Made by a program: the position numbers and the translations under genes
In this document: positions 6,114 through 59,045 of the stretch, piece after piece
How positions within the stretch are numbered: position 1 is the first letter of the stretch
Layout of the letters: each line of letters begins with the position of its first letter
Assembly (NCBI GenBank): GCA_023898465.1
Contig: CP060223.1
Span: forward strand, 224,001 to 288,000
DNA: 64,000 bases
Reading direction: 5' to 3'
From: Candidatus Nomurabacteria bacterium
GTDB taxonomy: Bacteria; Patescibacteriota; Patescibacteriia; HK-STAS-PATE-3
The notes under the pieces: model-generated
Databases searched by the model: none
What the model saw: only the letters and a program-made list of their open reading frames with translations
What the model was told of the DNA's origin: nothing

Positions 6114-9035
<2,922 letters not shown>

Positions 9036-15516: not shown

Positions 15517-15550
15517 GAGCCTAGCGGACACGAGATGAACCCGAGCCCCG

Positions 15551-15592: not shown

Positions 15593-15619
15593 ATAGACGT
15601 GCTTACACAGGAGGGAGTC

Positions 15620-15904
15620 ATGTCAGACGCTCATTGCAACGGTACTGCACAGGGAGTTCCTGAGATTCGCGAGGTGCAGATTGGACTTCACGAAGGGGTG
15701 GTACGTGCGCATCTGCTGCACGGGACTGGTCCTTTTGATCATGTAGAGCTCAAGGATGCCGGTAACTGCCTCTTGGTGACCGCTGATGGCACCGTGCTAT
15801 CGCTCACGCTTGCTTCGGAGACCATCATGGCTGCTACCTGGCATGGGCGACTTCAATCAGTGCAGGAAGCTGCTGAACGAGGTAGCGATGTGCCGCAGCA
15901 GTGA
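15620..15904 (+). CDS. hypothetical small protein (G+C-rich)
   Basis: ATG at 15620 is preceded by GGAGGGAG. The 94-aa protein begins MSDAHCNG. No family recognised. Confidence 0.4.
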   Translation: MSDAHCNGTAQGVPEIREVQIGLHEGVVRAHLLHGTGPFDHVELKDAGNCLLVTADGTVLSLTLASETIMAATWHGRLQSVQEAAERGSDVPQQ

Positions 15905-16029
15905 GACAAACACAATCAATATCCCACCTGCCTAGGTTTCATTACGAGACATGGGCAGGTTTCACATGTTGACAGCTTTTAGGGGATTCTCTAGAATCGA
16001 ACAGTCTTACTGGCTAAATAGAAAAACAC

Positions 16030-16344
16030 ATGCGCGAAAGCGAAGGATTCTCCCCAGAATTTATGGAAAACGAAAGCGACAGTGCGATGAGCGCTGAAGC
16101 GGCCGAAGCAAATTTCATTGATGAGGGAGCCCAACAGTGCGTGGTGATTGAGCCAGGCAATATTGACGTACAAACTGTCACCCAATTTGCCACAGAGCAG
16201 GGAGCGCTCATCGAGGACGAAGACGGTGGCAATCAGGATCGTTATGTGATTCGTTTCCCCGAGGGTGAACAGCAAGCGCTGACCTACGAGGAATTACGCG
16301 ACCAGATCGAAGTACATGCCCAGGAATGGGCCGAGGCAGCCTAG
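16030..16344 (+). CDS. hypothetical small acidic protein
   Basis: 104-aa, strongly acidic (E/D-rich) ORF preceded by a TTGACA-17-TAGAAT promoter at about 15969-15997. Confidence 0.45.
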   Translation: MRESEGFSPEFMENESDSAMSAEAAEANFIDEGAQQCVVIEPGNIDVQTVTQFATEQGALIEDEDGGNQDRYVIRFPEGEQQALTYEELRDQIEVHAQEWAEAA

Positions 16345-41523: not shown

Positions 41524-41598
41524 GGGTCCATAGCTCAATGGTAGAGCAACTGCCTTTTAAGCAGTGGGTTGGTGGTTCGAGCCCACCTGGACCCACCA
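41524..41598 (+). tRNA. tRNA-Lys (anticodon TTT)
   Basis: Cloverleaf: acceptor GGGTCCA/TGGACCC, D-arm GCTC-AATGGTA-GAGC, anticodon stem ACTGC/GCAGT with loop CTTTTAA, T-arm GGTGG-TTCGAGC-CCACC, encoded CCA. Confidence 0.9.
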
Positions 41599-42100
41599 GT
41601 CATATCGCGCTTTTTGCATACCCAAGAAGCGAGACCCAGCATAGCGTGGGTCTCGTGTGAGTTCAGACGCCTTTGCGGGCGTGGGGATTGTGGCGATAGA
41701 TCGCCATTCCCGGCTTTGCGGTACTGGGAACCTCGATCAGGATATCTCCGCTAGCACCGAAGACGTTTCGCGTCGTTGCCCCGAGGTCAACACGCAGGGT
41801 TGTCAGAGGCGCTGCTCCGAGCGGATCCCCGAGACAAATAATGTCTCGATCATGCAGCGTCACTCCTTGTTTGAGGCTGGCCGTATGCGTTCGTTGGAAC
41901 TGCACACTGCCGAGTACGCCAATCTTGATCCAGTCGGTCTGCGTAGCCGCTTGCGTCGACATAGTACCCCCATTCTTCCAGTGAAAGGCACGCACGGATC
42001 TCATCCTGAGAATGTGCAAATCTTGCCACGGAGTGTAGCGCTGTGGATTTTCTTTGTCAAGCAAAACGGACACACTCAAGTGAGGTGTCCGTAGTTGGGG

Positions 42101-42898
42101 TTAGTTGACGGAGGCGATCTCTTCATCAGGGATTGCGGCTATCAAGCGTCCGAGCGCCTTTTGCAGCGAAAGATTAGAGCGGGCTAAGCGTTCATCATAT
42201 CGGAAGAAGTGAAAGGGGATAGCAGAGGGGTCGGTCAACGCCATTTGTCCAAGCGCTCCAAGCTGCTGGAATACTGCCCCAAGATCGAGTTCGAGGTCGA
42301 ACAGGAGCTCCCAATCAATGCAAGATCGAAGCGCTTCCCAGGGTAGTGGCTCTTCCATGCAGCATGAGCGCCCGGCCAGCATTCTGACAAAGTGGCAGAG
42401 CCCAGGGTTGAAGAAGCTTTTTCTCCTTTGATCAGTCAGCAAGGTGCTTCTTGGGTCAAAGGGGTACACGGTGTCGTCCTCTCCCTGCATGAGCCATCCC
42501 TTGAGCAGCTCAAGATCAACCACGCTGGTGACCAAATCTTGGGTGGCGAGGGCCTTGCGATCAAAGCTCACGATGTCGCCCCAGGGGATCGGCAGACAGA
42601 TTGAGGCAACAAGTTCCACCCAAGCACCTAGTGTGTCTTGGCGATCCTCTGGGACAACCAAGAGAAAAGAATCAAGAGTTCTGGGAAGTGCCATAGCACC
42701 AAGGGCGGAGAGAAAGTTCCCGGCTTTTTTTCCTACAGCGTCGATGATGAGGCTTCGTATAGGCTCACCATCAGTATCTTCCAAGATGCTTTGAGAATCC
42801 TCAAGACTTGAGCAGACGGTGATGGTGTGGCAGTTGATCCGAGCTGCCAAATGGCGGGCTCGTTTCTGACTACCAGAAAAAACCAAGAGGTGTGCCAT
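42101..42898 (-). CDS. hypothetical protein (G+C-rich island gene)
   Basis: 265-aa ORF whose G+C-rich codon usage matches the island. No family recognised. Confidence 0.45.
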   Translation of the reverse strand: MAHLLVFSGSQKRARHLAARINCHTITVCSSLEDSQSILEDTDGEPIRSLIIDAVGKKAGNFLSALGAMALPRTLDSFLLVVPEDRQDTLGAWVELVASICLPIPWGDIVSFDRKALATQDLVTSVVDLELLKGWLMQGEDDTVYPFDPRSTLLTDQRRKSFFNPGLCHFVRMLAGRSCCMEEPLPWEALRSCIDWELLFDLELDLGAVFQQLGALGQMALTDPSAIPFHFFRYDERLARSNLSLQKALGRLIAAIPDEEIASVN

Positions 42899-42972
42899 AC
42901 TCAGACCTCCGTTGAGTTATGAAGGTGCTTCCTCCTATAGAGAAGTGTAGACGCATTGCGCATCTTCGACAA

Positions 42973-43391
42973 TACTTGACAACCCACTTCACAGGAGTAC
43001 ACTAAATGCACAATTGGTGGCGATCTCTGCCTGGCACTGACCAGGTTGTCCGGAGACGCCATGTTTTTGTATGCGCGTGTTCTTCCTCCTTGCCGCAGGG
43101 TGTAGCTCGGCTCCGCTCGCTACCCATTTCTCGGCATCGGTCTCTTTGCGATGATCGAAACGAAGAGCGTCTTTTTCTACTCTCCTGCAGGGGCGGTGCG
43201 GGAGCGCGGAATAGTTCCGGGCTTCATTTCCTCACATGAGGAAAGCGGCTTTGTTGCCGTTTTGCACCTTGAAATGCATGGAGGTTCGCCATGACTTGGC
43301 GTTTCCGACTCTTCCTGCTCATGGCCATCGCGTTGACCATGACACCCCTCGCTTTCATGACCGGCTGCCAGGAGCTGCCGACGGAGGGGGA
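42973..43391 (+). repeat. direct repeat copy A: promoter + 5' leader + signal-peptide cassette (partner at 46570..46894)
   Basis: Near-identical to copy B apart from one insertion of about 94 nt and scattered substitutions. It spans TTGACA through the first about 34 codons of the lipoprotein gene. Confidence 0.85.
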
Positions 43392-44028
43392 TTCACAGGA
43401 TCAAGTGGTTGAGAGTCCGGAAGCTCAACCCGGTCCAGCGATTCAGTCTACTGGGCCCGAATGGTATAATCAGGTCGTAAGTGAAGCAAAGTACACATTG
43501 TGCCAGCTTCGAAACGGCACATCGCATGAGGTCTATCAGGGTAAGGCTATGGGTGATTGGCCCTACCCACATCAAGGGGATTGTTGTAACGCCCTTGGTG
43601 TAGTCCGTCAATATATGTACGGTGGTGGCTCTCCAGGACCGCTTGGCGAATGGAATGGCTTCCAGCAAGGCGGTTGGTGCAAGTTCTTTGTCAACTTGGT
43701 GCTCTACCGCTCTAGCTATGGCTACCCGGGCGGACATTTGCTCTTGCCCACTTCTACGTATCGTTACAATAATCCACGCCCGGTTTCCGAAGCACAACCT
43801 GGATGGATCTTGCAGTCAGAAACACTACCTCATACTGCGATCGTAGTAGAACGACTAGGCGGTGGCTTGGATGTAATCGATTCAAACTGGATCGGAACTT
43901 ACAAGCGTCCGGACGGAAGTTATTACTACTCATATGCCATCGCAAGGCATGAAATCACAAATACGGAGTTGGATCGCTACGATTTCATGGCATATCGTCC
44001 GCATGAGGCGTGCGTGCTGCATAACTAG
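43291..44028 (+). CDS. lipoprotein with CHAP-like (cysteine, histidine-dependent amidohydrolase/peptidase) domain
   Basis: Signal peptide plus lipobox LAFMTG|C. QGDCCNALGVVRQY (Cys motif) and LPHTAIVVERLGGGLDVIDSNW (His motif) resemble the CHAP catalytic dyad. Confidence 0.55.
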   Translation: MTWRFRLFLLMAIALTMTPLAFMTGCQELPTEGDSQDQVVESPEAQPGPAIQSTGPEWYNQVVSEAKYTLCQLRNGTSHEVYQGKAMGDWPYPHQGDCCNALGVVRQYMYGGGSPGPLGEWNGFQQGGWCKFFVNLVLYRSSYGYPGGHLLLPTSTYRYNNPRPVSEAQPGWILQSETLPHTAIVVERLGGGLDVIDSNWIGTYKRPDGSYYYSYAIARHEITNTELDRYDFMAYRPHEACVLHN

Positions 44029-44101
44029 ATAGTGGGGGGTGCTGGAAAGTTTTTCAGTTCCCCCCACCTCCCACAAAGTCAATTATTTACTTCATAAGTA
44101 T

Positions 44102-44617
44102 ATGAAAAAAATCCAAATAGTCTTTCTCTTATTTTCAAGCATTGTTCTTGCGTCGGTGATTTTTTATTCCGGACATGCTATTTCATATAAAAATACAACC
44201 TACGGATATTCTTTTAGTACAATAAAAAAGTCTAATATTAAAGTTCTTGATCCAGCGCTTGTTCAAGTTTCAATTATAGGAGAAGAGGTTATTGAGGAGA
44301 GTCCAATAATAAACATATATGCTATTAAGTTGGAGCAAGATTCTTTGTCTGCAACCCAAGAACTTGAAACGTGGGTAGGGGAAGATCTTAATGGTTTCTC
44401 TGATATTAATATTCAGAGTACAACGACCGAAACAGAAAAAATAATTAACGTTACTTATACGGGAGGGGGGATGTCTGGAAGTATTAAATACGTCGGATTT
44501 TATGTTTTCAATCAGGAAGAAAAAACAATAATTAAGGTAGTAGCTTCTCAGTATAATGATAATATGGAATTGTTTGAGGCCTACAAAAAAATTCTTTCTT
44601 CCTTTCAGTTAATATAA
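44102..44617 (+). CDS. hypothetical membrane-anchored protein (AT-rich insert within the island)
   Basis: MKKIQIVFLLFSSIVLASVIFYSGH N-terminal anchor. 171 aa. Confidence 0.45.
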   Translation: MKKIQIVFLLFSSIVLASVIFYSGHAISYKNTTYGYSFSTIKKSNIKVLDPALVQVSIIGEEVIEESPIINIYAIKLEQDSLSATQELETWVGEDLNGFSDINIQSTTTETEKIINVTYTGGGMSGSIKYVGFYVFNQEEKTIIKVVASQYNDNMELFEAYKKILSSFQLI

Positions 44618-45255
44618 TGACCACCACTCATCGTCTCCTCATATTACTCATTGTCGTAGTTGCCGCAGGCTTTCTCTATCTTGGATTAAGATCAGATTCC
44701 TCCGATGTAACAACGACGAACAAAACAGTCAACAAAGATTTCCGTGAACTTGAAATGCTCAGTTCAGCTGGTCACAAGGTGTTTCAATCAGAGAATTATG
44801 ATTTCACCTATACGATTGATCATGGTGTTGACTGGAGCGTTAGCGAGGCTGCAGAGCCGACTTTGCTCACCACTTGGTTTTCTTTACCAAATCCAAATAG
44901 TGAAGAGGAAGAAAGAGATGATATTCCGAATGGGTTTAATACCTTTGAAAAAAATAGTTTTCGACTTGATGTATATCCTAACTCAGGTTCAGTAAGTCCA
45001 AATGGAGAAGCGGAGCTAAAAGATTGGTTAAAAAATGATCTTAATAGTGAGTATATTCCTGGAAGCTTTTTAACCTTATCCATTGCAAGAAACCGTTTAT
45101 TCAAAGTAGTTGATTTTCAGGGGATTGATGTGCGAGAGGCGCATTATTATCTATTTGGCTCTGCATTTGTATATGTCTTTTCAAGCGGTGATTTCACTGA
45201 GCAAGAAATGCGCGAGTTTATTAGCGGTTTTACCTACGAAAGAGCGCCTTTATAA
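44617..45255 (+). CDS. hypothetical membrane-anchored protein (AT-rich)
   Basis: Start overlaps the upstream stop (TAATG). N-terminal TM anchor. 212 aa. Confidence 0.45.
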   Translation: MTTTHRLLILLIVVVAAGFLYLGLRSDSSDVTTTNKTVNKDFRELEMLSSAGHKVFQSENYDFTYTIDHGVDWSVSEAAEPTLLTTWFSLPNPNSEEEERDDIPNGFNTFEKNSFRLDVYPNSGSVSPNGEAELKDWLKNDLNSEYIPGSFLTLSIARNRLFKVVDFQGIDVREAHYYLFGSAFVYVFSSGDFTEQEMREFISGFTYERAPL

Positions 45256-45462
45256 GCGCTTCATCTCATCTTTATTTCTTTACTTGACGCATCTCAGTAG
45301 TCCGAGCATAATCATTTTTGGGTAGTAACCCACGTTTTGATAAGCAGGAGAAGTACGGTAGATTCGATGGATGCGCCATGCGCACCCCATCTGCGTTGGA
45401 TTGTCACACTGAACCTCGGGTCAGGATAGCACCCTGACAAATCTGGAAAGAAAGGAGGCGTC

Positions 45463-46470
45463 ATGAACCGCCTGTTTGTCGTACTCGCGCTGATCACCAT
45501 CGGGGCTCTGGGTTTTGTTGGCTGCGGCGGTAAGGACGCCGCTACGAAGCCGGAAGAAATCCGCAGTCCAGATCAGATCGTGCAGTCTGAGATTGTCTAT
45601 ACCGTGAACCCAGACTACTCAGGGGTGAATGTTTCGTGGAAAACAAACATCCCGACAGTTGGAAGGGTGTACTATGGTAGGACTCCTCAACCAACTGACT
45701 ACGTCATCGAGGAGGTGAGCACTACTCAACATTTGTTGTGTGCACCTCGACTCAGGGGAGATGCGCTCTTCTACTTCCAAGTGCAATCATCCTTTTCCGA
45801 GGAAGTGATTAGCGCTCGGGAACCGAGCGAAGGCGATACACTTCGCACCCCACGATGGGTTGATTGGTCTCCACCTACCGTAAGATGGGTCGATCCTCGA
45901 GAAGGCGCAATAAAGGGCGGGACGATTGATCTCACTGTTTCGGCAAACGAATACGTTGTCAACGGGGTGGTAGAGGTGAAATTCTTTATCGATGGCAGGG
46001 TCATCGCTGTAGTGACTGAACCCGATGACGGTGATAAGATCTTCGTCGTGCATGACTTCAATACTACCCAGCTCACCGATGGCTTGCATAGCTTTCACGC
46101 GTTGGCAACAGATGTAAACGGTAACAGAGAGTCAAGGGGAATTACGGTCGACATCGACAACTCGAAGCCGGTCATCTATCGATGGGATGCTCCGAGAAAT
46201 CAGCGGGAGATCGGGAATTCTATCAATTTGCGAGTGGTGGCTCAGGACTTTCGTGGTGAACACGTCGATGATGTGTACATCACCCTCGATGGTCAACCAT
46301 TTGCGAGGCTTGAGGTGTGTGAACTGCGAGCTAGCGGCGTAGGAGATGTGTGGTGTAGAGACGTTGATACGTCGACGCTGTCACCCGGTCAGCACTACTT
46401 CGGTGCCGTTTCAGTAGATCATGCTGGCAACGAGTCAGATCCGGTCTACATCGGCGTCATCAAGCAGTAG
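45463..46470 (+). CDS. lipoprotein with Ig-like/FN3-like beta-sandwich repeats (G+C-rich)
   Basis: Lipobox LGFVG|C. Repeated beta-strand-rich segments (VNVSWKTN...VYYGRTPQ, IDLTVSANE..., FHALATDVNGN..., FGAVSVDHAGNES) typical of Big/FN3 folds. Confidence 0.5.
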   Translation: MNRLFVVLALITIGALGFVGCGGKDAATKPEEIRSPDQIVQSEIVYTVNPDYSGVNVSWKTNIPTVGRVYYGRTPQPTDYVIEEVSTTQHLLCAPRLRGDALFYFQVQSSFSEEVISAREPSEGDTLRTPRWVDWSPPTVRWVDPREGAIKGGTIDLTVSANEYVVNGVVEVKFFIDGRVIAVVTEPDDGDKIFVVHDFNTTQLTDGLHSFHALATDVNGNRESRGITVDIDNSKPVIYRWDAPRNQREIGNSINLRVVAQDFRGEHVDDVYITLDGQPFARLEVCELRASGVGDVWCRDVDTSTLSPGQHYFGAVSVDHAGNESDPVYIGVIKQ

Positions 46471-46569
46471 CCTTTCCAGTCCGTCAGGAATCCAACAGAG
46501 CCTGGGATCATCGATCTCGGGCTCTTCTCTTTTTGATACGCTCCAGAATGAAAAAGTGAAGTTTACTAT

Positions 46570-46894
46570 TACTTGACAACCCACTTCACAGGAGTACACT
46601 AAATGCACAATTGGTGGCGATCTCTGCCTGGCACTGACCAGGATGTCTGGAGACGCCATGTTTTTGTATAGGCGTATTCCACCCTCCCTTGCCGTGGCGT
46701 TGGGGAGCGCGGAATAGTTCCGGGCTTCATTTCCTCACATGAGGAAAGCGGCTTTGTTGCCGTTTTGCACTTTGAAATGCATGGAGGTTCGCCATGACTT
46801 GGCGTTTCCGACTCTTCCTGCTCATGGCCATCGCGTTGACCATGACACCCCTCGCTTTCATGACCGGCTGTCAGGAGCTGCCGACGGAGGGGGA
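46570..46894 (+). repeat. direct repeat copy B of the promoter/leader/signal-peptide cassette
   Basis: See copy A. This copy lacks the segment of about 94 nt. Confidence 0.85.
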
Positions 46895-47492
46895 GACTTC
46901 GGTGATCTCTGATGAGTTGCCGGATGCTTCACCCTCAGCTCAGTCAAGCCCGATGACTTGGCCCTCTTCGATCCAGGATTTCAAACTCCCTTATGATGGG
47001 ATCCGGGATGCATGCGGGGGTCAGATTTGGAAGGTTGTTTGCGGGTACGGATGTGGTTATCATCACAACACAAACTACATGGCCGCCGCGTACCATTCGA
47101 TTGATCTTGTACGGCAGGATGCGCCGACCACTCATAGCGCAGTACTCGCTCCGGCGCGTGGCATCGTTTCGTTTGTCGGATGGAGGAATGGGTACGGTTG
47201 GTGCGTGGAGATGGATCATCGAAACGGCTGGAAGTCGCTTGTGGCCCATCTCGAAACGGATCCTTGGGAATTCGTCCATACCTATGACGACCTGCGGCAG
47301 GGGACTTTCCTGGGCTATGCAGGGAACAGCGGAGCGAGTACGACACCCCACATTCACTTCTCGGTGTGGCGGAACAACGTCACTCATACGCTCGATGGCG
47401 TATCGTTGATCAACCCGCGTCTAAATGGGCGATACAATTCCGGCAATGATTATGTTGCGCCACCGACGGGAAATCCGAACCCGATTCCTTAA
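46794..47492 (+). CDS. lipoprotein peptidase M23 family (LytM/lysostaphin-like peptidoglycan endopeptidase)
   Basis: Identical signal peptide and lipobox to the 43291 gene. HSIDLV (HxxxD) and TPHIHFSVW (HxH) are M23 zinc ligand motifs. Confidence 0.7.
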   Translation: MTWRFRLFLLMAIALTMTPLAFMTGCQELPTEGETSVISDELPDASPSAQSSPMTWPSSIQDFKLPYDGIRDACGGQIWKVVCGYGCGYHHNTNYMAAAYHSIDLVRQDAPTTHSAVLAPARGIVSFVGWRNGYGWCVEMDHRNGWKSLVAHLETDPWEFVHTYDDLRQGTFLGYAGNSGASTTPHIHFSVWRNNVTHTLDGVSLINPRLNGRYNSGNDYVAPPTGNPNPIP

Positions 47493-47498
47493 CACGAT

Positions 47499-47535
47499 AG
47501 CGGAGAAGGTTTTTCATTAGAAAGCCTTCTCCGCT
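47499..47535. terminator. long perfect hairpin (agcggagaagg-...-ccttctccgct) at the 3' boundary of the GC-rich island
   Basis: 11-bp perfect inverted repeat with no strong T-run. It is a terminator-like or boundary element. Confidence 0.45.
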
Positions 47536-47668
47536 GTCTCTCCTCTCTATGAATAGTCATGTTGCTATTCTTTCTGTTAGCGATCACCATCCTTTTAGTT
47601 GATTTAGGATTAAAACTATAATTACGTTATTCTGGAGCATTTTCTCATAATATCGTAATCTTACTACT

Positions 47669-48682
47669 ATGAATCGTTTTTCTATCTTCATCGCAGTGTT
47701 CGTTCTTATCAGCGCAGTGGTTTATGCTTTCTTTTTTGCTACATTATTTGGGGAAAAGAAAGCTATTGAAGGAGTGCAGGGACCTGCTTTTATGTTTGCA
47801 ACCCTGCCTGACTCAGATGCATCTGCCGCGATAAGCATTTTTGAGATTCCTACAATGTCGAAGCGAAAGGCTGAAGACACATCTTTGCCAATGCATTTTC
47901 TTAAAAAACTAGGAGATCCGAGAGAGTATTTTGATCCCATACTTTCTTCAAGTGGTGCATATTTGGCTTTTAATCGTAATATTGGGGAGCCGAAACAGGA
48001 TAAGACAAATTTAGTAATACTTGCAGCTGACGGAAAAGAAAGGAGCGTGGAGAGCGGCTCTGCTGGAGATATAGGAATAGGAATGCTCACGCCCTTGCAG
48101 TGGAGTGCTGATGAAAAAACGCTCTACGCTTTTTATACACACGCAACTGAAGGTAATATCGTAGGCCTGGTGGCAATTGATGTGGCAACTTTAAGCCAAC
48201 AACGAATTGAAAAAATTGATGATCTACGTGTAAGTAACTACGTCTTTGATGAAGTCGGAAATACCTACGGTTTTGAACCGCACTATCGATTCCGCCCTGA
48301 AGACGAGGCTCAAACAACCTTTTATCGAATTTCTTTGACTAGTGGCGAAACAAAAAGCTTTACACTCCAGCAATCGAGTTTGGACGATCTCTTGACCGTA
48401 GATCCAAGCGGGAGATACCTCGTGTACGCAAACGGAGATGATTTTAATTCTCGTAACATTTGGATGTATGACATGGAAACCGGTGAGGAGCGCGCGTTGA
48501 CTGAAAATGCTGTTGTTAATGAAATTTTGCCCTGGAAAGATGGATATTTGGTATTTCTGGAGGAAAGTGTAAACACCCCCGCAGAAAAAACACTTGTATC
48601 ATACGATGTAAATTCTGGCATTCGCAAAGTTCTTTTAGAAAATGTTACAGGGACGTTCCGGCTTCTTGGTTGGTATCCCTAA
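47669..48682 (+). CDS. membrane-anchored PD40/TolB-like beta-propeller protein (paralog-type of 20627..21961)
   Basis: N-terminal TM helix. WSADEKTLYAF and DPSGRYLVYANGDD blades. Confidence 0.5.
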   Translation: MNRFSIFIAVFVLISAVVYAFFFATLFGEKKAIEGVQGPAFMFATLPDSDASAAISIFEIPTMSKRKAEDTSLPMHFLKKLGDPREYFDPILSSSGAYLAFNRNIGEPKQDKTNLVILAADGKERSVESGSAGDIGIGMLTPLQWSADEKTLYAFYTHATEGNIVGLVAIDVATLSQQRIEKIDDLRVSNYVFDEVGNTYGFEPHYRFRPEDEAQTTFYRISLTSGETKSFTLQQSSLDDLLTVDPSGRYLVYANGDDFNSRNIWMYDMETGEERALTENAVVNEILPWKDGYLVFLEESVNTPAEKTLVSYDVNSGIRKVLLENVTGTFRLLGWYP

Positions 48683-48715
48683 TTTCATATATCAGTTGGG
48701 AGGTTTTTATTAAAC

Positions 48716-48746
48716 CTTGCCCCTCCCCTTAAAAAGTGGTATAGTC
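48716..48746 (+). promoter_or_regulatory. putative promoter with extended -10 (TTGCCC-17-TGgTATAGT) for the sensor-module array operon
   Basis: Hexamers and spacing seen directly in the sequence. It is followed by an untranslated leader of about 190 nt before the first paralog. Confidence 0.4.
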
Positions 48747-48940
48747 ATTGAGCTATTCTGAATATCTCAATATTCTAGCAACCGCGTGAAAATGTCAGCA
48801 AAAACAGACATCGCGGAGGGGGAAATCACTCAAGAGCAGCACATACTCTTGTATACTCAAGCGTCCCTAGTAAAAAGGGATGTTTTTTGTGTGCAAAGTA
48901 GCCTCGTAGCTGCCACAAGTTCTGAAAGGAGCGAAGGCGC

Positions 48941-49600
48941 ATGTTAGGTTATCTTTTGCTCATTATATCGGTTGTAGAGTTTTTTATTGGCCTGTACCTT
49001 ATTTTTCGCTATGAAAAAAGCCAGGCAACAACATATTACGGTCTCTTTGCAATAAGTGTTGCGATCTATGTTGCCGCGAACGGTTTCGGATTTACCCGAG
49101 CTTCTGATAACGAGTTTATTTTTGAGCAACTTGCTTGGTTTGGCGGCTTACTTAGCGCCCCATTTATCCTTGGCTTCAGTTATAGCTTTCCTAGCCCTAA
49201 AAAATATCCCACTGAGCTATTTCCGTGGGTAATTTGGCCAGTAGTGTTATTTGGCGCAGGAATTTTTACTTCAAATATTTTCCTGGAGAAAACGTATATT
49301 TATTCCTTTGCCGAAGGCTACACTGCGCCAATCGGTGTCTTTTTCTGGTTCGCCATTGCAGTATTTGCGATGTATTGGATATGGGCAATACGAAACCTGC
49401 TGTATACGAGATTGCACACAAGCGGTTTTTATAGGAATTTTCTTACCATTGTGCTCATAGGGCTTTTTTCATCACTGCTTATTTCAGCAATTTTTGATAT
49501 TTACATTCCCTTAGTTTCAGTCACGCGCTACGGATATATTGGAGCATTATTCTCGTCTATTTGGCTGTTTACTACCGCGTATTTAATGGTGAGGAAGTAA
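48941..49600 (+). CDS. standalone 7TM membrane protein, paralog 1 (homologous to the HisKA_7TM-type N-terminal sensor module of the downstream histidine kinase)
   Basis: 219 aa, about 7 hydrophobic helices. Conserved blocks (N/R)xFLxIxLIGLxxSLL(I/V)S and GY(I/M)G(A/P)L(F/A)SSIWLF...YL(M/I)(V/L)RK are shared with the other paralogs and with HK residues about 190-230. Confidence 0.7.
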   Translation: MLGYLLLIISVVEFFIGLYLIFRYEKSQATTYYGLFAISVAIYVAANGFGFTRASDNEFIFEQLAWFGGLLSAPFILGFSYSFPSPKKYPTELFPWVIWPVVLFGAGIFTSNIFLEKTYIYSFAEGYTAPIGVFFWFAIAVFAMYWIWAIRNLLYTRLHTSGFYRNFLTIVLIGLFSSLLISAIFDIYIPLVSVTRYGYIGALFSSIWLFTTAYLMVRK

Positions 49601-49601
49601 G

Positions 49602-50261
49602 ATGATTGGATATATATTACTCATTATCTCAGTTGTTGAAGTAATACTCGGTTTTTATTTGATTTTTCGATATGTAAAAAGTCCAGCAACTATATATTAC
49701 GGCCTATTCGCGCTAAGTGTAGCACTCTATGTAGGTGCAAACGGGTATGGTTTTAGTCCGTTTTCAGAAAATGATATATGGCTGGAAATAATTGCCTGGA
49801 TTGGCGGGACCTTTACCGCTCCTTTTATTCTTGGCTTCAGTTACTCATTCCCTTATCCACGTAAGTCCAATAAGGAAATACTGTCTTTAGTTCTTAGTCC
49901 ACTCGTTTTTTTCTTCGTCGTAATACTTTTTTCTAATACTTTTGTAGATCATAATAGTGTTATCAGCTTTGATGAAGGATTTCAAAGACCTGTCGGGGAG
50001 TTACACTGGTTTGTATTATCAGTATTCTTTTTCTATTGGGTTTGGTCTTTTATTGAACTAGTAAAGAGTCGAAAAAAATCCGACGGCTTTAATAAGAATT
50101 TTCTTCTTATTTTAATTATAGGCTTAGTTTTTTCTTTGTTGGTTTCGGTATTTACTAACATCATTCATCCACTTGTCGATGTTTCAAAGTTAGGTTATAT
50201 GGGCCCCTTAGCCTCTTCAATCTGGCTATTTATTACTGGGTACTTGATATTGAGGAAGTAA
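49602..50261 (+). CDS. standalone 7TM sensor-module paralog 2
   Basis: 219 aa. Starts 1 nt after the paralog 1 stop, with an RBS aggaag. About 60% identical to paralog 1 by eye. Confidence 0.7.
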   Translation: MIGYILLIISVVEVILGFYLIFRYVKSPATIYYGLFALSVALYVGANGYGFSPFSENDIWLEIIAWIGGTFTAPFILGFSYSFPYPRKSNKEILSLVLSPLVFFFVVILFSNTFVDHNSVISFDEGFQRPVGELHWFVLSVFFFYWVWSFIELVKSRKKSDGFNKNFLLILIIGLVFSLLVSVFTNIIHPLVDVSKLGYMGPLASSIWLFITGYLILRK

Positions 50262-50932
50262 TGAACACCTTTCATTTAGTTTTACTTTTTACACTTTTCT
50301 TTATTCACGCGACTCTCGCAATATGGATGTTGCGTAGATATGTGCAGACGCTATCCATTCGTTATTACTCAGGCTTTTTATTTGGACTAGCACTTATTGC
50401 ACTATTAAATGGTTTATTGCTGTTATTTGGCGGTCAGGAGAGTCAAACAGTCCTTCATAAGATCGGCTTTATCTCAGGCACCTTCACTTTTGTGATGTTC
50501 TTTATGTTTAGTAAGTACTTTCCAATTTCTACTGCAAGACCAAACTCCCGCGACATTCTTTTTTGGGTAATTCCGATTACATTTTTTATTCCATTCATAC
50601 TTTTTAATCAGCAGTTTATCCAGTCTGTGATTATAGAAAATGGAATAAGTAAGCCTACATTTGGAGTCTGGTATACACCATTTATGTTAGTTTTGGCCAC
50701 CTTTGTTCTGGGGGCTATCTATAATCTCATACAGAAATATAAAATAACCACTGAACTTGAAATTAGGAAGAACATTAGAGACATTACGGCAGTATTTTTC
50801 GTATCAGGACTCCTTGGCTTTTTGTTGGACGTTGTGTTGCCAAGGTTTAATGTTTATACGGCACATTACTTTGCCATTGAATCTTCACTTTTTGTTGCGC
50901 TAACTACTGCAATTATTATTGCAAAGAAGTAA
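50261..50932 (+). CDS. standalone 7TM sensor-module paralog 3 (divergent)
   Basis: 223 aa. TAATG stop/start overlap with paralog 2. Confidence 0.65.
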   Translation: MNTFHLVLLFTLFFIHATLAIWMLRRYVQTLSIRYYSGFLFGLALIALLNGLLLLFGGQESQTVLHKIGFISGTFTFVMFFMFSKYFPISTARPNSRDILFWVIPITFFIPFILFNQQFIQSVIIENGISKPTFGVWYTPFMLVLATFVLGAIYNLIQKYKITTELEIRKNIRDITAVFFVSGLLGFLLDVVLPRFNVYTAHYFAIESSLFVALTTAIIIAKK

Positions 50933-50933
50933 G

Positions 50934-51605
50934 ATGAAAGAGTTTCTCATCATTGCAAATTATCTGGTTGGAATAGGGGAGTTGATGCTCGCTGGATATT
51001 TTTGGAAAACAAACAGCGGCAGCGCAATTCGGAAGGTGATGGTGTTGTTGGCGTTTTCGACTGGTATGTGGGTCATTTTTACCGGAACCTTTACCTACCG
51101 CTGGATTTTGCTTGATTACTTTGATCTCGGCATATCATTTGTATATTTCTTTGGAATTTTGTTCCTTACCGCCTTACTTCATTTAGTAATTCTCTTTCCT
51201 CACAAGATTTTCCCGTTTGATAGGCTACATACAGTTTTGTTGTATATTCCAACACTCATATTAGGTTTTGCCGCTTTTACTCCAGCGATAATTAAAGAAA
51301 ATATCACTCCGTCGAGCGGGTATACCACAAGTTATCCCGGACCAGCACATTGGATGTTTAATAGCTATCTTTTTCTCATGTATGCAATGGTGATAATCCT
51401 ACTCATTGTTAAGATCAAGCGTTTTGATGGATTTAGCAGAGATAACGCAAAAACTTTGCTTTGGGGTATTATTTTAGGCGGCCTACCCATCGTTTTCTTA
51501 GATTTGGTTTTGACAACTTTGGGCATCTACCCAAATGCTGCCGTTGCCAGCCTTTTCACAGTTGTCTGGCTTGGGTTTACTACTTACATAATTGTACGGA
51601 AATGA
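50934..51605 (+). CDS. standalone 7TM sensor-module paralog 4 (divergent)
   Basis: ATG 50934 lies 1 nt after the paralog 3 stop. The track ORF at 50919 uses an upstream TTG. C-terminus ...YIIVRK. Confidence 0.65.
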   Translation: MKEFLIIANYLVGIGELMLAGYFWKTNSGSAIRKVMVLLAFSTGMWVIFTGTFTYRWILLDYFDLGISFVYFFGILFLTALLHLVILFPHKIFPFDRLHTVLLYIPTLILGFAAFTPAIIKENITPSSGYTTSYPGPAHWMFNSYLFLMYAMVIILLIVKIKRFDGFSRDNAKTLLWGIILGGLPIVFLDLVLTTLGIYPNAAVASLFTVVWLGFTTYIIVRK

Positions 51606-52288
51606 ACGGAGAAATAGTATTTTTTGATTTAATTTTACTTAGCGTTGTTGGATTATTAGAATTAGCCTTTGGGATTTATTTAATAGTCCGTTATGTGAGG
51701 ACAAGTTCGATAGTATTTTTTGCACTTTTCGTTTTCTTTCTTTCTTTGTGGGTGCTTACAAATGCGGCTGCTTTCGTAATACCAATACATAATGTCTTCT
51801 TTGATATTGATTCAAAGTTGAGTTTTGTTTTTGCAATATTACTTTTTCCAGCGCTATACTTATATGTAATTAATTTTCCCATCCCTACAATATTAATAAA
51901 TTGGCGTTTAATACTTTTTGTGTTTACTGCGCCAATACTTCTTAGTACAATGATTTTAGGGTCGGGAACGGTTGTATTTGGATTTGATAAATTGATAGAG
52001 AATCAGCCAACTATATTTGGAGAAGCTTTTTGGGCCTATTCTTTTTATATGTTGTTCATGTATGCAATTATTTTATTTGAATTAATAAGGCAGATTAATA
52101 AGTCCAAGGGTTCTCACAGATGGTATGCACAAATTTTATTTTTTGCTGTTTTCATTTCTGGCGCAATAGGGCTATTATTTAATCTTGTTCTGCCTTCGAT
52201 GTTCGATATTAGAATTGCTTATTGGATAGCCCCATCTAGTTCAATTATTTGGCTTGCTCTTGTTTGGTGGGCGACGCAGAGGAAATAA
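51602..52288 (+). CDS. standalone 7TM sensor-module paralog 5
   Basis: ATGA start/stop overlap with paralog 4. Conserved YLIVRYVRTS and C-terminal ...WWATQRK. Confidence 0.65.
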   Translation: MNGEIVFFDLILLSVVGLLELAFGIYLIVRYVRTSSIVFFALFVFFLSLWVLTNAAAFVIPIHNVFFDIDSKLSFVFAILLFPALYLYVINFPIPTILINWRLILFVFTAPILLSTMILGSGTVVFGFDKLIENQPTIFGEAFWAYSFYMLFMYAIILFELIRQINKSKGSHRWYAQILFFAVFISGAIGLLFNLVLPSMFDIRIAYWIAPSSSIIWLALVWWATQRK

Positions 52289-52290
52289 TT

Positions 52291-52959
52291 ATGGATTATG
52301 GTGTATACTTATTATTAGTTATTGCGGGCCTAGAACTTTGGTTGACAATATACATATTTACTCGCTACCAAAGAACAAAAGCTATTTTTTTCTTTGGACT
52401 CTTTACTGCTTGTGTGACTGGATGGGTGCTAACTAATTCTATTCCGCTTCTTTTTTCCTATTCAAGTTGGCAATCTGATTTTTTGCAACGCCTCTCGTTT
52501 TCTTTTGCTGCATTTATTTTTCCTTTTCTTTATTATTATATTCTTTTACATCCATTTCCAAGCATTGATATCAACAAGCGATTCATATTATTCACATCCC
52601 TCCCGGCCTTCTTTGTTTCTATTGCCACTCTCTTTGATAAAAACTTTGTTATAGGATTCTATGATACCTCAGTAAGGGCAACAATATACGGCGACTCTTT
52701 TTGGATGTATGCGGTAGTTATGTTGCTATTTGCAATTCTTATTCCTGTGGAAATAATTTTAAAAAGAAGAAGACTGGATGGATATTATCGCTACCAATTC
52801 AAATTATTATTCAGCGCCTATTTGTTTTCAGCGGCAGTAGGATTACTAATTAATTTAATATTGCCATATTTTTTCGACTTAAAAATTAACTATTGGCTTG
52901 GGCCCGCGTCATCGATTATTTGGGTGAGTATGGTTTGGTGGGTTATTAATAGAAGGTAA
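52291..52959 (+). CDS. standalone 7TM sensor-module paralog 6
   Basis: Starts 2 nt after the paralog 5 stop. C-terminal WLGPASSIIWVSMVWWVINRR matches the HK GFGPLSTLFLLFFISYAIIRHR block. Confidence 0.65.
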   Translation: MDYGVYLLLVIAGLELWLTIYIFTRYQRTKAIFFFGLFTACVTGWVLTNSIPLLFSYSSWQSDFLQRLSFSFAAFIFPFLYYYILLHPFPSIDINKRFILFTSLPAFFVSIATLFDKNFVIGFYDTSVRATIYGDSFWMYAVVMLLFAILIPVEIILKRRRLDGYYRYQFKLLFSAYLFSAAVGLLINLILPYFFDLKINYWLGPASSIIWVSMVWWVINRR

Positions 52960-52981
52960 TGTTTAATTGCGATTTTCAAAA

Positions 52982-53641
52982 ATGACAATAGGACATGTAG
53001 TTGAAGAATTTAAAAGTCGGTATATTAAAAGACAACTAGATCATAATTTTATTGTTTTAGAGACTCAAAATAACAACCAACTAAATTTATCATATAGATT
53101 AAGATACGAAGTATATTGTCTAGAATGTAAATATTTAGACGTGAATAATTATCCCAATAGGTCTGAAAAGGATGAGTATGATGATTGTTCAATACATTTC
53201 ATCGCAATAAATAAAAAGACAAAAAATGTTGTTGGCACAATTCGACTTATTAAACGCACTAATAGGAATTTGCCAATAGAGCATGATTTTGGAATTTCTC
53301 TGAATGGATCAATTAGTTCTAAAAAAGTTGTGGAGATTTCTAGACTAGCGGTTGATAAAAAATTTAGGAAGTCGAGTTTAAAGCATCCAAGTATTATGTT
53401 AGGTTTATTAAAAGCATGCTATAGATACGCCGAAGAAAATGGAATTGCAATGTTTGTAGCGGCAATAGATCAAAATGTATATAATATGTTAAAAAAGTTT
53501 CGTTTTTCATTTAATTTATTAGGGGAACCAAAACATTATATGGGTTCAATCTCAGTACCCGTGTTAATTGATATCGAAAAAGAATCGCAGTGGTTAAAAA
53601 TAGTAAATCCTGGACTATGGACATTTCTTTCAAGCAATTAG
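52982..53641 (+). CDS. GNAT-fold N-acyltransferase resembling LuxI/FeeM-type autoinducer / N-acyl amino acid synthases
   Basis: LRYEVYCLECKYL...EKDEYDDCSIHFIAINKKTKNVVGTIRLI...LPIEHDFGISL...VVEISRLAVDKKFRK follows the R.EVF...E.D.YD...(Y/H)(L/F).A......G..RL.P......E..F...E.SR.AV pattern of the Autoind_synth/Acetyltransf_5 families. Confidence 0.5.
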   Translation: MTIGHVVEEFKSRYIKRQLDHNFIVLETQNNNQLNLSYRLRYEVYCLECKYLDVNNYPNRSEKDEYDDCSIHFIAINKKTKNVVGTIRLIKRTNRNLPIEHDFGISLNGSISSKKVVEISRLAVDKKFRKSSLKHPSIMLGLLKACYRYAEENGIAMFVAAIDQNVYNMLKKFRFSFNLLGEPKHYMGSISVPVLIDIEKESQWLKIVNPGLWTFLSSN

Positions 53642-54276
53642 CTCATAAAATTGTATTATTCTATTTAAGACGGGCTAGCCACAAAAAATACCTAACATTT
53701 AGCTTTAGCGATCTTATTATACTCTGTCCCCCAAACGTGTTCCCGCCTAATTCGTTTACCACTGACCTAATGGCTAAGTGGCTAGTAAACGAAGAGATGG
53801 AAGGTAAACAGGTTTTAGAGATGGGTTGTGGAAGTGGATACATTTCGATTATTGCCGCACGAAAAGGGGCAAAAGTAATTGCAAGCGACATCAGCCCTAT
53901 CGCGGTTGATGCCGCAAAAATCAATACCATAATAAATAAGATAAAAAATGTCGAATGTTATTGCTCGGACTTATTTTCTAACTTAGAAGGAAAGTTTGAT
54001 TTAATTCTCTTCAACGCACCTTTTTTTCATGGAGAACCCACTTCTTTATTAGATAACAATTGGATGAGTAAGGATGGGGAGGTGGTCAGTAAATTTTTTA
54101 AAGACGCAAGAGAATATATTAATCCAATGGGGAAGGTAGTTATTACTAGTTCGACTCTAGTTAATCAAGATGCTCTGAAAATATTAATTAAAGAAAGCGG
54201 ATTTAATATTGAAAACGTGAAAACAAAAAATATTATTATTGAAAAATTTTTCTTGTATGAATGTAGAGCTTTTTAA
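53617..54276 (+). CDS. class I SAM-dependent methyltransferase, small-domain (HemK/Mtq2-like)
   Basis: The VFPPNSFTTDL entry motif resembles the Mtq2/HemK N-terminal motif. GxGxG is VLEMGCGSGYISI, followed by an acidic loop ASDIS and DLILFNAPFF (NPP(Y/F)-like). The start overlaps the GNAT gene by 25 nt. Confidence 0.7.
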   Translation: MDISFKQLAHKIVLFYLRRASHKKYLTFSFSDLIILCPPNVFPPNSFTTDLMAKWLVNEEMEGKQVLEMGCGSGYISIIAARKGAKVIASDISPIAVDAAKINTIINKIKNVECYCSDLFSNLEGKFDLILFNAPFFHGEPTSLLDNNWMSKDGEVVSKFFKDAREYINPMGKVVITSSTLVNQDALKILIKESGFNIENVKTKNIIIEKFFLYECRAF

Positions 54277-55021
54277 TAGAAATCAACCATTTATAACTAA
54301 AAAAGAACAAAAAATTCTCACAAAACAGAAAGTTTGTTTTATTGGATGTGGTCTTGCAAGTCAAGCCGCACTCCTTATTGCCAGGACAGGTATTGGAAAA
54401 ATAGTACTTTGTGATGGAGACAAGGTCGAGTTGAGTAATCTTAACAGGCAAGCATTTGACATTGGTGATATTGGAGAAAACAAAGCAGAAAGCTTAATGA
54501 GAAAGATATTAAGCATCAATTCAAATATTGAAGTGGAGCAGTATCCGGTTTTTTTAAAAAAATCGATTATTTCAAATGTAATAAAAGATTCAGATATTGT
54601 AGTGAGCACAGTTGATGCGGGTCCTTTATATTTTGAAATTCAGGAATATATTAATAAAAAAGGCATTATGGGAATATTCCCCATGAATATTGCCTTTGGA
54701 TCACTCGTATTCGTATCAAAAAATGGAAAGGGTGATTTTAAATCGTTATTTGGGGAGAAATTACCTGAAAATAATTCTGAATTTTTTTATCAACTTTACA
54801 ATAAACTTAAACAAAATGTACCAAGCTATTTATCTCCTCATATTGAAATCTTATTAAGTGGATTTAAAACAAACAGTCCAATTCCACAGCTAGGATTAAC
54901 GACTTTACTTACCGCATCTTTGATTACTGAGATAATACTGGCTGGGAACAGGGCTGAGCAATTATTGTTAACTCCAAGATTCTATTATTTTGATATTCGT
55001 GAATTCGTTCGAAATGGATAA
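54257..55021 (+). CDS. ThiF/MoeB/E1-like adenylyltransferase
   Basis: Rossmann VCFIGCGLASQ followed by DGDKVELSNLNRQ, the ThiF signature. The core is 254 aa with no rhodanese or peptide-clamp extension. Confidence 0.75.
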   Translation: MNVELFNRNQPFITKKEQKILTKQKVCFIGCGLASQAALLIARTGIGKIVLCDGDKVELSNLNRQAFDIGDIGENKAESLMRKILSINSNIEVEQYPVFLKKSIISNVIKDSDIVVSTVDAGPLYFEIQEYINKKGIMGIFPMNIAFGSLVFVSKNGKGDFKSLFGEKLPENNSEFFYQLYNKLKQNVPSYLSPHIEILLSGFKTNSPIPQLGLTTLLTASLITEIILAGNRAEQLLLTPRFYYFDIREFVRNG

Positions 55022-57785: not shown

Positions 57786-58216
57786 AACAGGTAAGGGGGA
57801 AACAACCAAAACGCATCCTACTTGTCGAGGACGAGCCGCTCTTAGCAACGATGTATATGTTGGCGTTGCAGCAACGAGTAAAGGCTGAGGTGTACGGGGC
57901 TAAGACACGCGAAGAAGCGGAGCGCATTATTGAGCGTGTGAAGCCGGATTTAGTGCTGCTTGATCTCATGATTCCCTCGATTACCATCCAAGACACGGAG
58001 CAGGATTTTCATCATCCAGTAGGGCTGCAATTCTTAGCCCAAATTCGGAAGAGTCCAAAGACGCGTTCAATCAAGGTAATGATTCTCTCCAACCTTGATG
58101 CGGATGAGCAACGCAAGCGGGCCATTGATTTAGGTGCCGAGGATTACCTATTAAAAGCCAGTCTGCAGCCGCACGCGATTGTGGAAAAGGTAAAGCATAG
58201 TTTAGGGATAAAATAA
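57782..58216 (+). CDS. single-domain response regulator (receiver only)
   Basis: RILLVEDEPLL...DLVLLDLMIP...K receiver motifs. ATGA overlap with the HK stop. No output domain. Confidence 0.85.
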   Translation: MKQVRGKQPKRILLVEDEPLLATMYMLALQQRVKAEVYGAKTREEAERIIERVKPDLVLLDLMIPSITIQDTEQDFHHPVGLQFLAQIRKSPKTRSIKVMILSNLDADEQRKRAIDLGAEDYLLKASLQPHAIVEKVKHSLGIK

Positions 58217-58568: not shown

Positions 58569-59003
58569 ATGAAAAATATTTTTCCAAAAGGGGTCGAGGT
58601 AGTAGCGGGGGTAATAATATTCCATAAAGGGAAGATTCTGATTGCACGCTCACCGAAGTGGTCAGATAAATGGACATTGCCGGGCGGCCATATTGATCCC
58701 GGAGAAACAATTGCAGAGGCGGCTATGCGAGAAGCGGAAGAAGAGACGGGCTTAAAGGTTCATCCACTTGGTTTTGTGAAAGCAGGTGAACTTATTTATT
58801 CAAAGGATTTTCACCGGCCTGCGCATTTTCTCTATTTTGATTATGCTGTTGAAGCAGATGATGGTAATGCAACACTTGATAAGCGCGAATTAACGGAAAT
58901 GCAATGGTGTTCTCCAAAAGAAGCGCTCCAGATGGACTTAGCAGAAAGTTTTTCTGAATCAATCCAAGCTTTTTTAGAAAAGTTTCCGCAATACGCCGGG
59001 TAG
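58569..59003 (+). CDS. NUDIX hydrolase
   Basis: Nudix box GGHIDPGETIAEAAMREAEEETGL (GX5EX7REUXEEXGU). Confidence 0.85.
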   Translation: MKNIFPKGVEVVAGVIIFHKGKILIARSPKWSDKWTLPGGHIDPGETIAEAAMREAEEETGLKVHPLGFVKAGELIYSKDFHRPAHFLYFDYAVEADDGNATLDKRELTEMQWCSPKEALQMDLAESFSESIQAFLEKFPQYAG

Positions 59004-59045
59004 TGCTGCTTTTCTGAAGCGCGAAAAAATGGTATAGTAGGGCGC

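Follow-up and report, generated by a model that had tools for sequence, protein, structure and literature searches.

We analysed 64 kb of one Candidatus Nomurabacteria genome (hereafter the window; positions are counted from its first nucleotide) and identified a duplicated promoter-leader-signal-peptide module that heads the genes of two lipoproteins, both putative peptidoglycan hydrolases. The two genes belong to a stretch of about 17.4 kb that begins directly behind a tRNA-Lys gene and varies between lineages. We consider it probable that this stretch is an envelope and signalling locus with rapid turnover that is native to the candidate phyla radiation (CPR) and composed of gene families characteristic of this group, with two unrelated lipoprotein hydrolases, the duplicated module and a conserved leader; the roles, expression and localisation attributed to the hydrolases in this reading are predicted from the sequence. 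An original prediction for the same DNA had interpreted the left part of the stretch as a G+C-rich island acquired from an actinobacterial-type donor and had raised the possibility that the organism is a CPR member. The latter was supported by DnaB of the window, whose relatives are from Patescibacteria. Features were called with ARAGORN, Rfam 15, Pfam, NCBIfam and PHROG, and relatives were compared as partial contigs, labelled L001 etc.

The module consists of two direct repeats (42973-43391 and 46570-46894), which are absent from the original prediction. Both copies are 95% identical over 110 nt and 99% identical over 192 nt, and they part at a 94-nt stretch (about 43086-43179) present in copy A only. 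Each copy includes a promoter-like site of the sigma-70 type and a 5’ hairpin domain (Table 1), followed by a conserved 3’ leader domain, a Shine-Dalgarno (SD) sequence (GGAGG in copy A) and the first 33 codons of the downstream gene. These codons specify a lipoprotein signal peptide that is identical in both copies and ends just past the lipobox. The 5’ leader spans approximately 290 nt in copy A and 190 nt in copy B, with fold z-scores of -2.8 and -4.0, respectively. A reading of the leader as upstream open reading frame (ORF) was discarded, since the two copies are in different frames on either side of the 94-nt indel. Copy A precedes the gene of an NlpC/P60-like protein and copy B that of an M23 peptidase; signals for expression and targeting are thus common to two enzymes whose folds are unrelated.

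As the window stems from a metagenome-assembled genome (MAG) and short-read assemblies break at the repeat, a chimeric join had to be considered. Logan assemblies from two independent sequencing runs were 100% identical to the window and both broke at 43002, 30 nt into the repeat. However, the copies differ by several substitutions and the 94-nt indel, and both run in frame into complete mature domains typical of their families. Moreover, the same leader was found on the unrelated contig L108, and a comparable homogenisation of 5’ ends occurs in L084. We therefore regard an assembly artefact as extremely unlikely. Short-read contigs end in or at the leader module in two organisms (position 1 of L108; position 1 of L088 and L089, corresponding to window position 43002), and the other end of L089 corresponds to window position 41523, at the start of tRNA-Lys. 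Contig ends at the leader module and at tRNA-Lys are expected if such sequences are repeated in genomes.

A similar arrangement has been described for the variable lipoprotein genes vsp/vpma, which possess a common 5’ untranslated and signal-peptide region (PMC2268961). As in these Mycoplasma genes, genes with different mature parts share the 5’ untranslated and signal-peptide coding region (325-419 nt in the window). Unlike vsp/vpma, the window has only two copies in direct orientation, and the two mature enzymes have folds that are unrelated. Neither a recombinase nor an invertible promoter nor repeat-rich mature domains were found in the window locus.

The leader was also detected in other genomes. 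The promoter and the first leader hairpin (cAgAAGGUGGCGAUCUUC...GAAGACGCC...UUUUGUAU) also stand at the head of operons for hydrolases or surface proteins on four further contigs of related CPR bacteria, and in three genomes the element lies divergent from a rare receiver-like orphan gene. On L108, a short contig with the only homologue found for the receiver-like gene of the window, the same divergent layout is present; promoter and leader DNA are 80-86% identical to the window, while the adjacent receiver-like proteins share only 28% identity. A full-leader nhmmer search gave only a weak match in L107, and a shorter covariance model of the 5’ leader domain (R1), with 79 positions and 16 pairs from four training sequences, was needed for the other sites. 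This model scored 82.6 bits for copy A and 85.5 bits for copy B, and it recovered two sites on which it had not been trained. One of them (L002 5631-5696, 28.7 bits) lies 8 nt upstream of an operon of a membrane-protein and an M23 gene; the other (L001 1476-1416, 23.7 bits) lies upstream of a membrane-protein and M23 pair, divergent from a receiver-like paralogue. Both are situated at the tRNA-Lys site of the closest relatives. Applied to 1.2 Mb of 78 other CPR loci, the model returned nothing above 16.8 bits. A weaker match in L002 (18.3 bits, 4798-4890, minus strand) overlaps the 3’ end of an IS30-family gene. In Rfam 15, only tRNAs reached the gathering score, and neither leader matched a family at E <= 5, the cyclic-di-AMP class included. 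As judged from these sequence comparisons, the duplicated module is new, and the leader motif without Rfam match in several CPR genomes is a candidate new motif.

Every leader site is located about 8 nt after a promoter-like pair TTGAC(A/T)-17-TAnAnT. The spacing between the leader arms GGUGGCGAUCUUC and GAAGACGCC ranges from 6 to about 45 nt among six sites, and the long spacers fold into a hairpin of their own, with three different stem sequences. Such variation in spacing is more readily reconciled with a helix in the RNA than with an operator in the DNA. In the alternative, the inverted repeat past the promoter would be the operator of a dimeric repressor, for example the receiver-like protein or the response regulator. 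Such an operator would be consistent with the strongly conserved primary sequence of the stem (GGTGGCGATCT / AGACGCC), with its position at about +8 to +60 and with the divergent regulator-like gene. It is, however, quite unlikely in our view, as the range of arm distances is ill-suited to fixed half-site spacing, the inserts form hairpins with three stem sequences, and the transcribed strand contains G·U pairs. In the model-fitted alignment, 89% of the cells pair, compared to 38-55% after sliding of the partners; in four pairs, both sides are changed. These statistics provide modest support for the helix and lean toward the model.

5’-terminal stem-loops that stabilise the transcript and leaders that sequester the SD sequence are familiar from Gram-positive bacteria. 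Like these, the window hairpin starts a few nucleotides past the predicted transcription start, and an alternative pairing over SD sequence and AUG is possible in two genomes. It differs from known stabilisers by a conserved, sequence-specific stem, which suggests recognition by a factor, and by the lack of an Rfam family.

The gene behind copy A encodes a 245-aa protein that had been described as CHAP-like lipoprotein. This holds only at the fold level: the protein has the NlpC/P60-CHAP superfamily fold with a Cys-His-polar catalytic arrangement and may be a cysteine peptidase or an amidase that acts on peptidoglycan. It had no Pfam match at E <= 0.1, PF05257 and PF00877 included, and no NCBIfam match; sequence searches of the PDB with this protein and with the receiver-like protein returned nothing meaningful. 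Compared to the NlpC/P60 (PF00877) and CHAP (PF05257) hydrolases, such as Acd24020, LysIME-EF1, SagA, LytE and RipA, the family is set apart by this missing profile match and by an extra conserved N-terminal subdomain of approximately 70 residues. It comprises about 37-50 members, most of which retain Gly-Cys behind their hydrophobic stretch, and all contig contexts that were examined are CPR-like. Exact look-ups of the NlpC/P60-like and M23 proteins of the window in the contig index gave no match. The translations of both hydrolase genes contain the lipobox FMTG-C26. Together with Cys21 (FVGC) of an immunoglobulin (Ig)-like protein encoded between them, lipobox cysteines are thus present in all three proteins for which they had been reported, and the assignments of the Ig-like and M23 lipoproteins were confirmed by significant domain matches (Table 1).

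The M23 protein shows PDB relatives in TagE and other M23 peptidases. It shares with the M23 (LytM/lysostaphin-type) endopeptidases an above-cutoff PF01551 score, the catalytic His and the HxH motif, with His152 and His186-x-His188 being invariant. It differs from canonical members as a small single-domain lipoprotein in which the HxxxD zinc motif is not present; what is conserved in its subfamily instead is His90 and, 14 positions further on, Asp104. We take this long spacing to be like that of LasA-type M23A enzymes. Residues 90-104 of the window protein read GYH...SID, and HxxxD is kept in neighbouring M23 proteins of L002 and L086. Only four close relatives were found, with 51-53% identity, and those closest relatives that could be placed on contigs all have a CPR-like gene context. 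No actinobacterial name was encountered among the homologues of the NlpC/P60-like family or the closest M23 relatives, contrary to the proposed actinobacterial-type donor. Regarding a link to phages, PHROG gave only domain-level M23 matches, and tblastn searches in phage genomes were empty.

Two further observations concern the 5’ regions of NlpC/P60-like genes. In L084, a unit of 2.2 kb comprising an NlpC/P60-like gene and a gene for a protein of about 400 aa is tandemly duplicated. The copies at 5599-5898 and 7846-8145 are 100% identical over 300 nt, covering the upstream region and the first approximately 145 coding nucleotides, while the proteins are 70% identical. This pattern points to gene conversion at the 5’ end of the tandem paralogues, as far as can be read from the sequences. 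In addition, an SD-like motif (A[AG]AG[GT][GA]AGGTG[AG]T) occurred five times in 3.09 Mb when both strands were counted (L081 7918, L090 7834, L094 125, L096 7831 and L082 649, the latter from the same organism as L081). All five occurrences are on the coding strand, 83-170 nt upstream of NlpC/P60-like gene starts; since the pattern was defined from these same sequences, its informative part is the absence elsewhere.

To the left, the locus is anchored by tRNA-Lys(TTT), whose position directly before the segment at 41524-41598 (plus strand) was confirmed by ARAGORN and Rfam. It is orthologous to the tRNA-Lys beside dnaQ/dnaB in L001-L006 and L008, and the gene order recR-ybaB-dnaB-dnaQ-tRNA-Lys is kept in L001, L002, L003 and L005. 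In L001 (4737-4811) and L002 (8834-8908), the tRNA gene is inverted relative to dnaQ when compared to the window, L003 and L005. Variable DNA begins at 41599, immediately after the tRNA. In L003, L004 and L005, a P-type ATPase gene follows tRNA-Lys directly or one or two genes later, with the AsnS gene one further gene beyond it in L003 and L004, and in L006, L007, L008, L010 and L011 the ATPase gene lies within a few kb of dnaB. The window counterparts of the ATPase and AsnS genes are located at 59046-61721 and 61785-63077. Because the ATPase gene adjoins tRNA-Lys or dnaB in these relatives, the variable stretch extends from 41.6 to 59.0 kb. It is three times as long as the segment flagged earlier, which forms its left third, and the block is missing in eight relatives (L003-L008, L010 and L011).

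L001 and L002, the closest relatives, carry REC-like paralogues, membrane-anchored proteins, an M23 protein and the same leader motif at the tRNA-Lys site; the arrangement is therefore older than the split of these lineages. With respect to orthologous islands in relatives, the variable zone is thus absent in many, but related content and the leader are present in L001 and L002. An IS30-family transposase gene (HTH_38 and rve) is located in the equivalent region of L002 (3826-4836). Other occupants of the site are a ChrR-type cupin in L001 (3525-4058, minus strand) and, in L004 (7975-9666, minus strand), a secreted protein of 563 aa that contains a Pur_ac_phosph_N domain and an Ig-like Big_13 domain. 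With the latter, Ig-like surface proteins recur at this site.

Further to the right, window positions 46794-57785 are collinear with the CPR contig L086. Identities amount to 53% for the M23 protein, 45% for the product of the next gene (337 aa), 24-40% for stand-alone HisKA_7TM paralogues, 33% for the FeeM-like synthase, 34% for ThiF and 47% for a histidine kinase with seven-transmembrane (7TM) and GAF regions. The 7TM/FeeM/kinase array is also present in L107, where the kinase is 52% identical and an NlpC/P60-like gene (54% identity) stands at the head, and in L083 and L105 an NlpC/P60-like gene is found within 2-3 kb of the orthologous kinase gene. The head of the kinase locus is thus occupied by M23 in L086, by the NlpC/P60-like gene in L107 and by both in the window. 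Orthologues of the kinase in L083, L086, L105 and L107 are 42-52% identical, each encoded near a hydrolase of either family. These contexts imply that a hydrolase of either family is a recurrent companion of the kinase signalling locus. In L007 and L008, a histidine kinase gene is already located beside the ATPase gene.

The synteny with L086 runs across the hairpin that had been proposed as right island border at 47.5 kb, and this hairpin is therefore no border. It starts 4 nt past the M23 stop codon as a terminator of this gene, and the variable zone reaches the ATPase gene at 59046. The hairpin, reported as long and perfect at 47499-47535, is indeed strong (-31.3 kcal/mol, z = -6.8) but imperfect: it spans 47496-47538, and its 18-nt arms (47496-47513 and 47521-47538) are 89% complementary (19 bp with G·U).

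The rise in G+C content that had been called marked is real, including G+C at third codon positions (GC3), but modest. G+C content is 0.533 in 41599-44030 and 0.527 in 45301-47540, compared to 0.476 in 1-41523 and 0.463 in the whole window, and excursions of equal or larger size occur elsewhere in the window (14.0-16.2 kb, 0.561; 48.9-55.0 kb, 0.347). The reported shadow ORFs were found on both strands, and so was the AT-rich interruption with two membrane-anchored hypotheticals (44031-45300, G+C 0.366), both of which have N-terminal hydrophobic anchors. Composition was referenced to 22 confident core genes of the window, using GC3 and codon-usage log-likelihood. Core-gene GC3 was 0.463 ± 0.031 (range 0.396-0.511), and the genes of the G+C-rich arms are 2.5-5 standard deviations above it, with values of 0.541 (NlpC/P60-like), 0.562 (Ig-like), 0.571 (REC-like) and 0.622 (M23). 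Their codon-usage log-likelihood was close to 0 versus 0.13-0.41 in core genes. The G+C-richest stretch of the window (14000-16200) lies 1.4 kb from tRNA-Pro (12591-12667), has heavy shadow ORFs and contains an ORF at 14254-15516 (G+C 0.608, GC3 0.73). The 420-aa product of this ORF is hydrophobic near the N-terminus and in the middle, has Ala/Thr/Pro-rich linkers and had no Pfam match.

From its composition and its placement beside the tRNA gene, horizontal acquisition of the segment had been suggested. GC3 and codon usage are atypical, but the same gene-specific pattern is present in L086, L107 and most loci of the hydrolase family: NlpC/P60-like genes exceed their flanks in G+C content in 14 of 16 loci and are the G+C-richest window in nine. 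The order of GC3 is identical in the window (43291-57785), L086 (755-11304) and L107 (914-11157), descending from the head hydrolase (0.54-0.81) and the kinase (0.47-0.61) to the following gene and the 7TM genes (0.22-0.54), and finally to FeeM and ThiF (0.22-0.37). This common mosaic, ranging from 0.22 to 0.81, is found in loci whose proteins are only 35-54% identical. At such identity synonymous sites are expected to be saturated, which implies that the mosaic is maintained and not freshly imported. Thus, as judged from the sequences, it is probably a conserved gene-specific property of this type of locus and not the mark of DNA newly acquired from a phylum with high G+C content. Candidate causes are codon selection acting on individual genes and GC-biased gene conversion, the latter as hypothesized in PMC4450053.

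tRNA-linked genomic islands typically combine adjacency to a tRNA 3’ end, atypical composition, accessory surface functions and absence in several relatives, all of which apply here. Accordingly, tRNA adjacency, the elevated GC3 with atypical codon usage and the relatives without the segment would speak for a classical island at the tRNA-Lys 3’ end that came from an actinobacterial-type donor of high G+C content, has its border at the 47.5-kb hairpin and has lost its integrase. Unlike such islands, the locus has no integrase and no direct repeats, its content is common to the nearest relatives, and its composition is conserved in orthologues. As had been stated earlier, no integrase or transposase was found, nor any other mobility domain, among the scanned ORFs of 41.6-59.0 kb. 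The attL/attR repeats expected near 47.5 kb were not found either: no second copy of the 28-nt 3’ end of tRNA-Lys occurs up to 64 kb with three or fewer mismatches allowed, and the longest tRNA match in 41599-64000 is 11 nt (E 0.28, chance level). Since synteny crosses the right border, placeable homologues are all in a CPR-like context, the G+C mosaic is repeated in orthologous loci, and L001 and L002 carry related genes with the same leader at the site, the classical actinobacterial island is largely refuted, and we consider this origin very improbable.

An origin within the CPR deserves more attention. The 41.6-59.0 kb block or its modules may be an old island exchanged among Patescibacteria, which would have been inserted between tRNA-Lys and the ATPase gene in the ancestor of the window, L001 and L002 and reshuffled later, its G+C-rich genes stemming from CPR donors with 56-62% G+C. 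The G+C content of the relatives spans 32-62% (56.5% in L001), and most gene transfers detected in a survey of Patescibacteria were between Patescibacteria (PMC12455944), so that exchange within the CPR is possible. The absence of the block from eight relatives, the IS30-family transposase in L002 and the varying head gene of the kinase locus would also fit. In contrast, the same GC3 ranking at 35-54% identity is hard to obtain from repeated fresh imports, and the kinase beside the ATPase in L007 and L008 suggests that part of the block may be ancestral. We rate an old island of this kind as possible, though rather unlikely; it overlaps with the interpretation as a native envelope and signalling locus, and the partial contigs do not separate the two.

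Concerning the function of the native locus, we propose that both hydrolases would be co-expressed from the repeated promoters and would be Sec substrates; anchored to the outer membrane face by a lipid at Cys26, they would cut peptidoglycan there. Their activity might serve division of the cell itself or, as the original prediction had proposed for an episymbiont, be directed at a host wall. The leader hairpin would act at the RNA level, either as 5’ stabiliser or as protein-binding site. Furthermore, the 5’ arm of the hairpin would have two alternative partners in the window and L108, a decoy close by (GGAGACGCCAUG) and the genuine SD-start region (GGAGGUUCGCCAUG), and the choice between them may constitute a translational switch. 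In the minimum-energy fold of the single sequence, this arm is paired with the genuine SD-start region, whereas the consensus fold pairs it with the mimic (3’ arm). Based on these folds, we put forward the switch as a weak suggestion.

Likely candidates for regulators are the receiver-like protein, the nearby pair of 7TM histidine kinase and response regulator, or both. The 265-aa receiver-like protein has a receiver fold with a phospho-acceptor Asp. It had no Pfam match, its C-terminal half matched nothing, and a word-indexed homologue search returned only the protein itself. After strand 1 the window copy reads SGSQ, without an acidic Mg-binding pair, while the L001 paralogues have Asp there. 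Going further, the locus might represent an as yet undescribed CPR-specific regulatory system, in which this atypical receiver-like protein reads the leader RNA and controls interchangeable hydrolase cassettes (NlpC/P60-like, M23 or both) that head a locus with 7TM receptors, an N-acyl synthase and a histidine kinase. The shared 5’ module would then serve as portable recombination handle, frequent gene conversion would lead to high GC3 (PMC4450053), and the hydrolases would be deployed on a signal, possibly against the host wall. We consider this extended scenario speculative and improbable.

Several points weigh against our interpretation of the locus. The leader model represents five organisms only, and its pair counts were derived from an alignment fitted to the model. 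The receiver-like copy of the window is devoid of the acidic pair normally needed for phosphorylation, and the structural model of this protein is of low confidence outside residues 1-113; a prediction based on two aligned sequences was weak. Decoy/SD pairing is confined to the window and L108, as the start regions of L001, L002 and L107 differ. Finally, the codon usage of the hydrolase genes is truly atypical for this genome, which leaves room for inter-CPR exchange.

The remaining genes and elements of the locus are listed in Table 1. Between tRNA-Lys and the minus-strand ORF converging on it lies a G+C-rich hairpin, which probably terminates transcription in both directions. This ORF (41663-42079) is uncertain: a plus-strand shadow ORF (41657-42094) scores about equal, neither Pfam nor PHROG gave a match, and a candidate relation to the cupin-like gene at the corresponding position of L001 was dismissed as there is no resemblance. 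The products of both A+T-rich genes combine an N-terminal membrane anchor with an extracytoplasmic domain of about 150 aa; they had no family match in Pfam or PHROG, and pairwise BLAST against the analogous neighbours in relatives found none. Those tandem paralogues that do not match HisKA_7TM have homologues with this annotation in L083, L086 or L107. For the histidine kinase, an N-terminal region of HisKA_7TM type and a GAF domain are predicted from the L086 and L083 orthologues. Judged by its genes, the region 48941-58216 appears to be a quorum-sensing-like locus; it is collinear with L086, L107 and partly L083 and L105, always beside a peptidoglycan hydrolase gene. Quorum-sensing genes in the CPR have been surveyed (PMC7567580).

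Table 1. Genes and sequence elements of the locus and its borders (positions in the window).
Feature	Position	Strand	Evidence and remarks
tRNA-Lys(UUU)	41524-41598	+	ARAGORN; Rfam 75 bits; left anchor of the variable zone
G+C-rich hairpin	41630-41655		Fold of 41596-41665: -26.3 kcal/mol, z = -4.6
Uncertain ORF, 99-138 aa	41663-42079	-	No homologue; gene callers of Logan contigs chose the minus strand
Orphan protein, 265 aa	42101-42898	-	N-terminal receiver (CheY-like) fold and helical C-terminal half; divergent from copy A
Module copy A	42973-43391	+	Promoter-like TTGACA-16-TACACT 42976-43003; 5’ hairpin domain 43009-43085
NlpC/P60-CHAP-fold lipoprotein, 245 aa, Cys26	43291-44028	+	Papain-like fold
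Two A+T-rich genes (44039/44102-44617; 44617-45255)	44039-45255	+	GC3 0.27-0.32
Ig-like lipoprotein, 335 aa, Cys21 (lipobox FVG-C21)	45463-46470	+	Big_7 E = 5e-10; Big_13 E = 7e-5
Terminator-like hairpin	46497-46525	+	3’ of the Ig-like gene; terminator scan; fold -21 kcal/mol
Module copy B	46570-46894	+	Same promoter-like site 46573-46600; 5’ hairpin domain 46606-46682
M23 metallopeptidase lipoprotein, 232 aa, Cys26	46794-47492	+	PF01551 66.8 bits (cutoff 28.7), E = 2e-18
Terminator-type hairpin of the M23 gene	47496-47538	+	Starts 4 nt past the M23 stop codon
Membrane-anchored hypothetical protein, 337 aa	47669-48682	+	Also beside M23 in L086 (45% identity)
Six tandem stand-alone paralogues, 219-275 aa	48941-52959	+	Three match HisKA_7TM (PF16927); block A+T-rich
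FeeM/autoinducer-synthase-like N-acyl synthase, S-adenosylmethionine (SAM) methyltransferase, ThiF-family enzyme	52967-55021	+	Pfam; syntenic in L086 and L107
Histidine kinase (931 aa), then response regulator (144 aa)	54990-58216	+	NCBIfam, Pfam
NUDIX gene, then P-type ATPase gene (59046-61721)	58569-61721	+	Right anchor of the variable zone: ATPase gene

For the calling of genomic islands the locus is a caution, as atypical composition beside a tRNA gene alone is no proof of a recent foreign origin. Cultivated CPR bacteria (Patescibacteria) are attached to host cells, and how they remodel their own wall or breach that of the host is largely unexplained. The locus described here gives concrete parts: an NlpC/P60-like family without Pfam match, which we encountered in CPR-like contexts only, an M23 lipoprotein of small size, and a leader that marks hydrolase operons in several related genomes. 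A candidate for the regulator and the repeated association with a quorum-sensing-like 7TM/kinase locus add to these.

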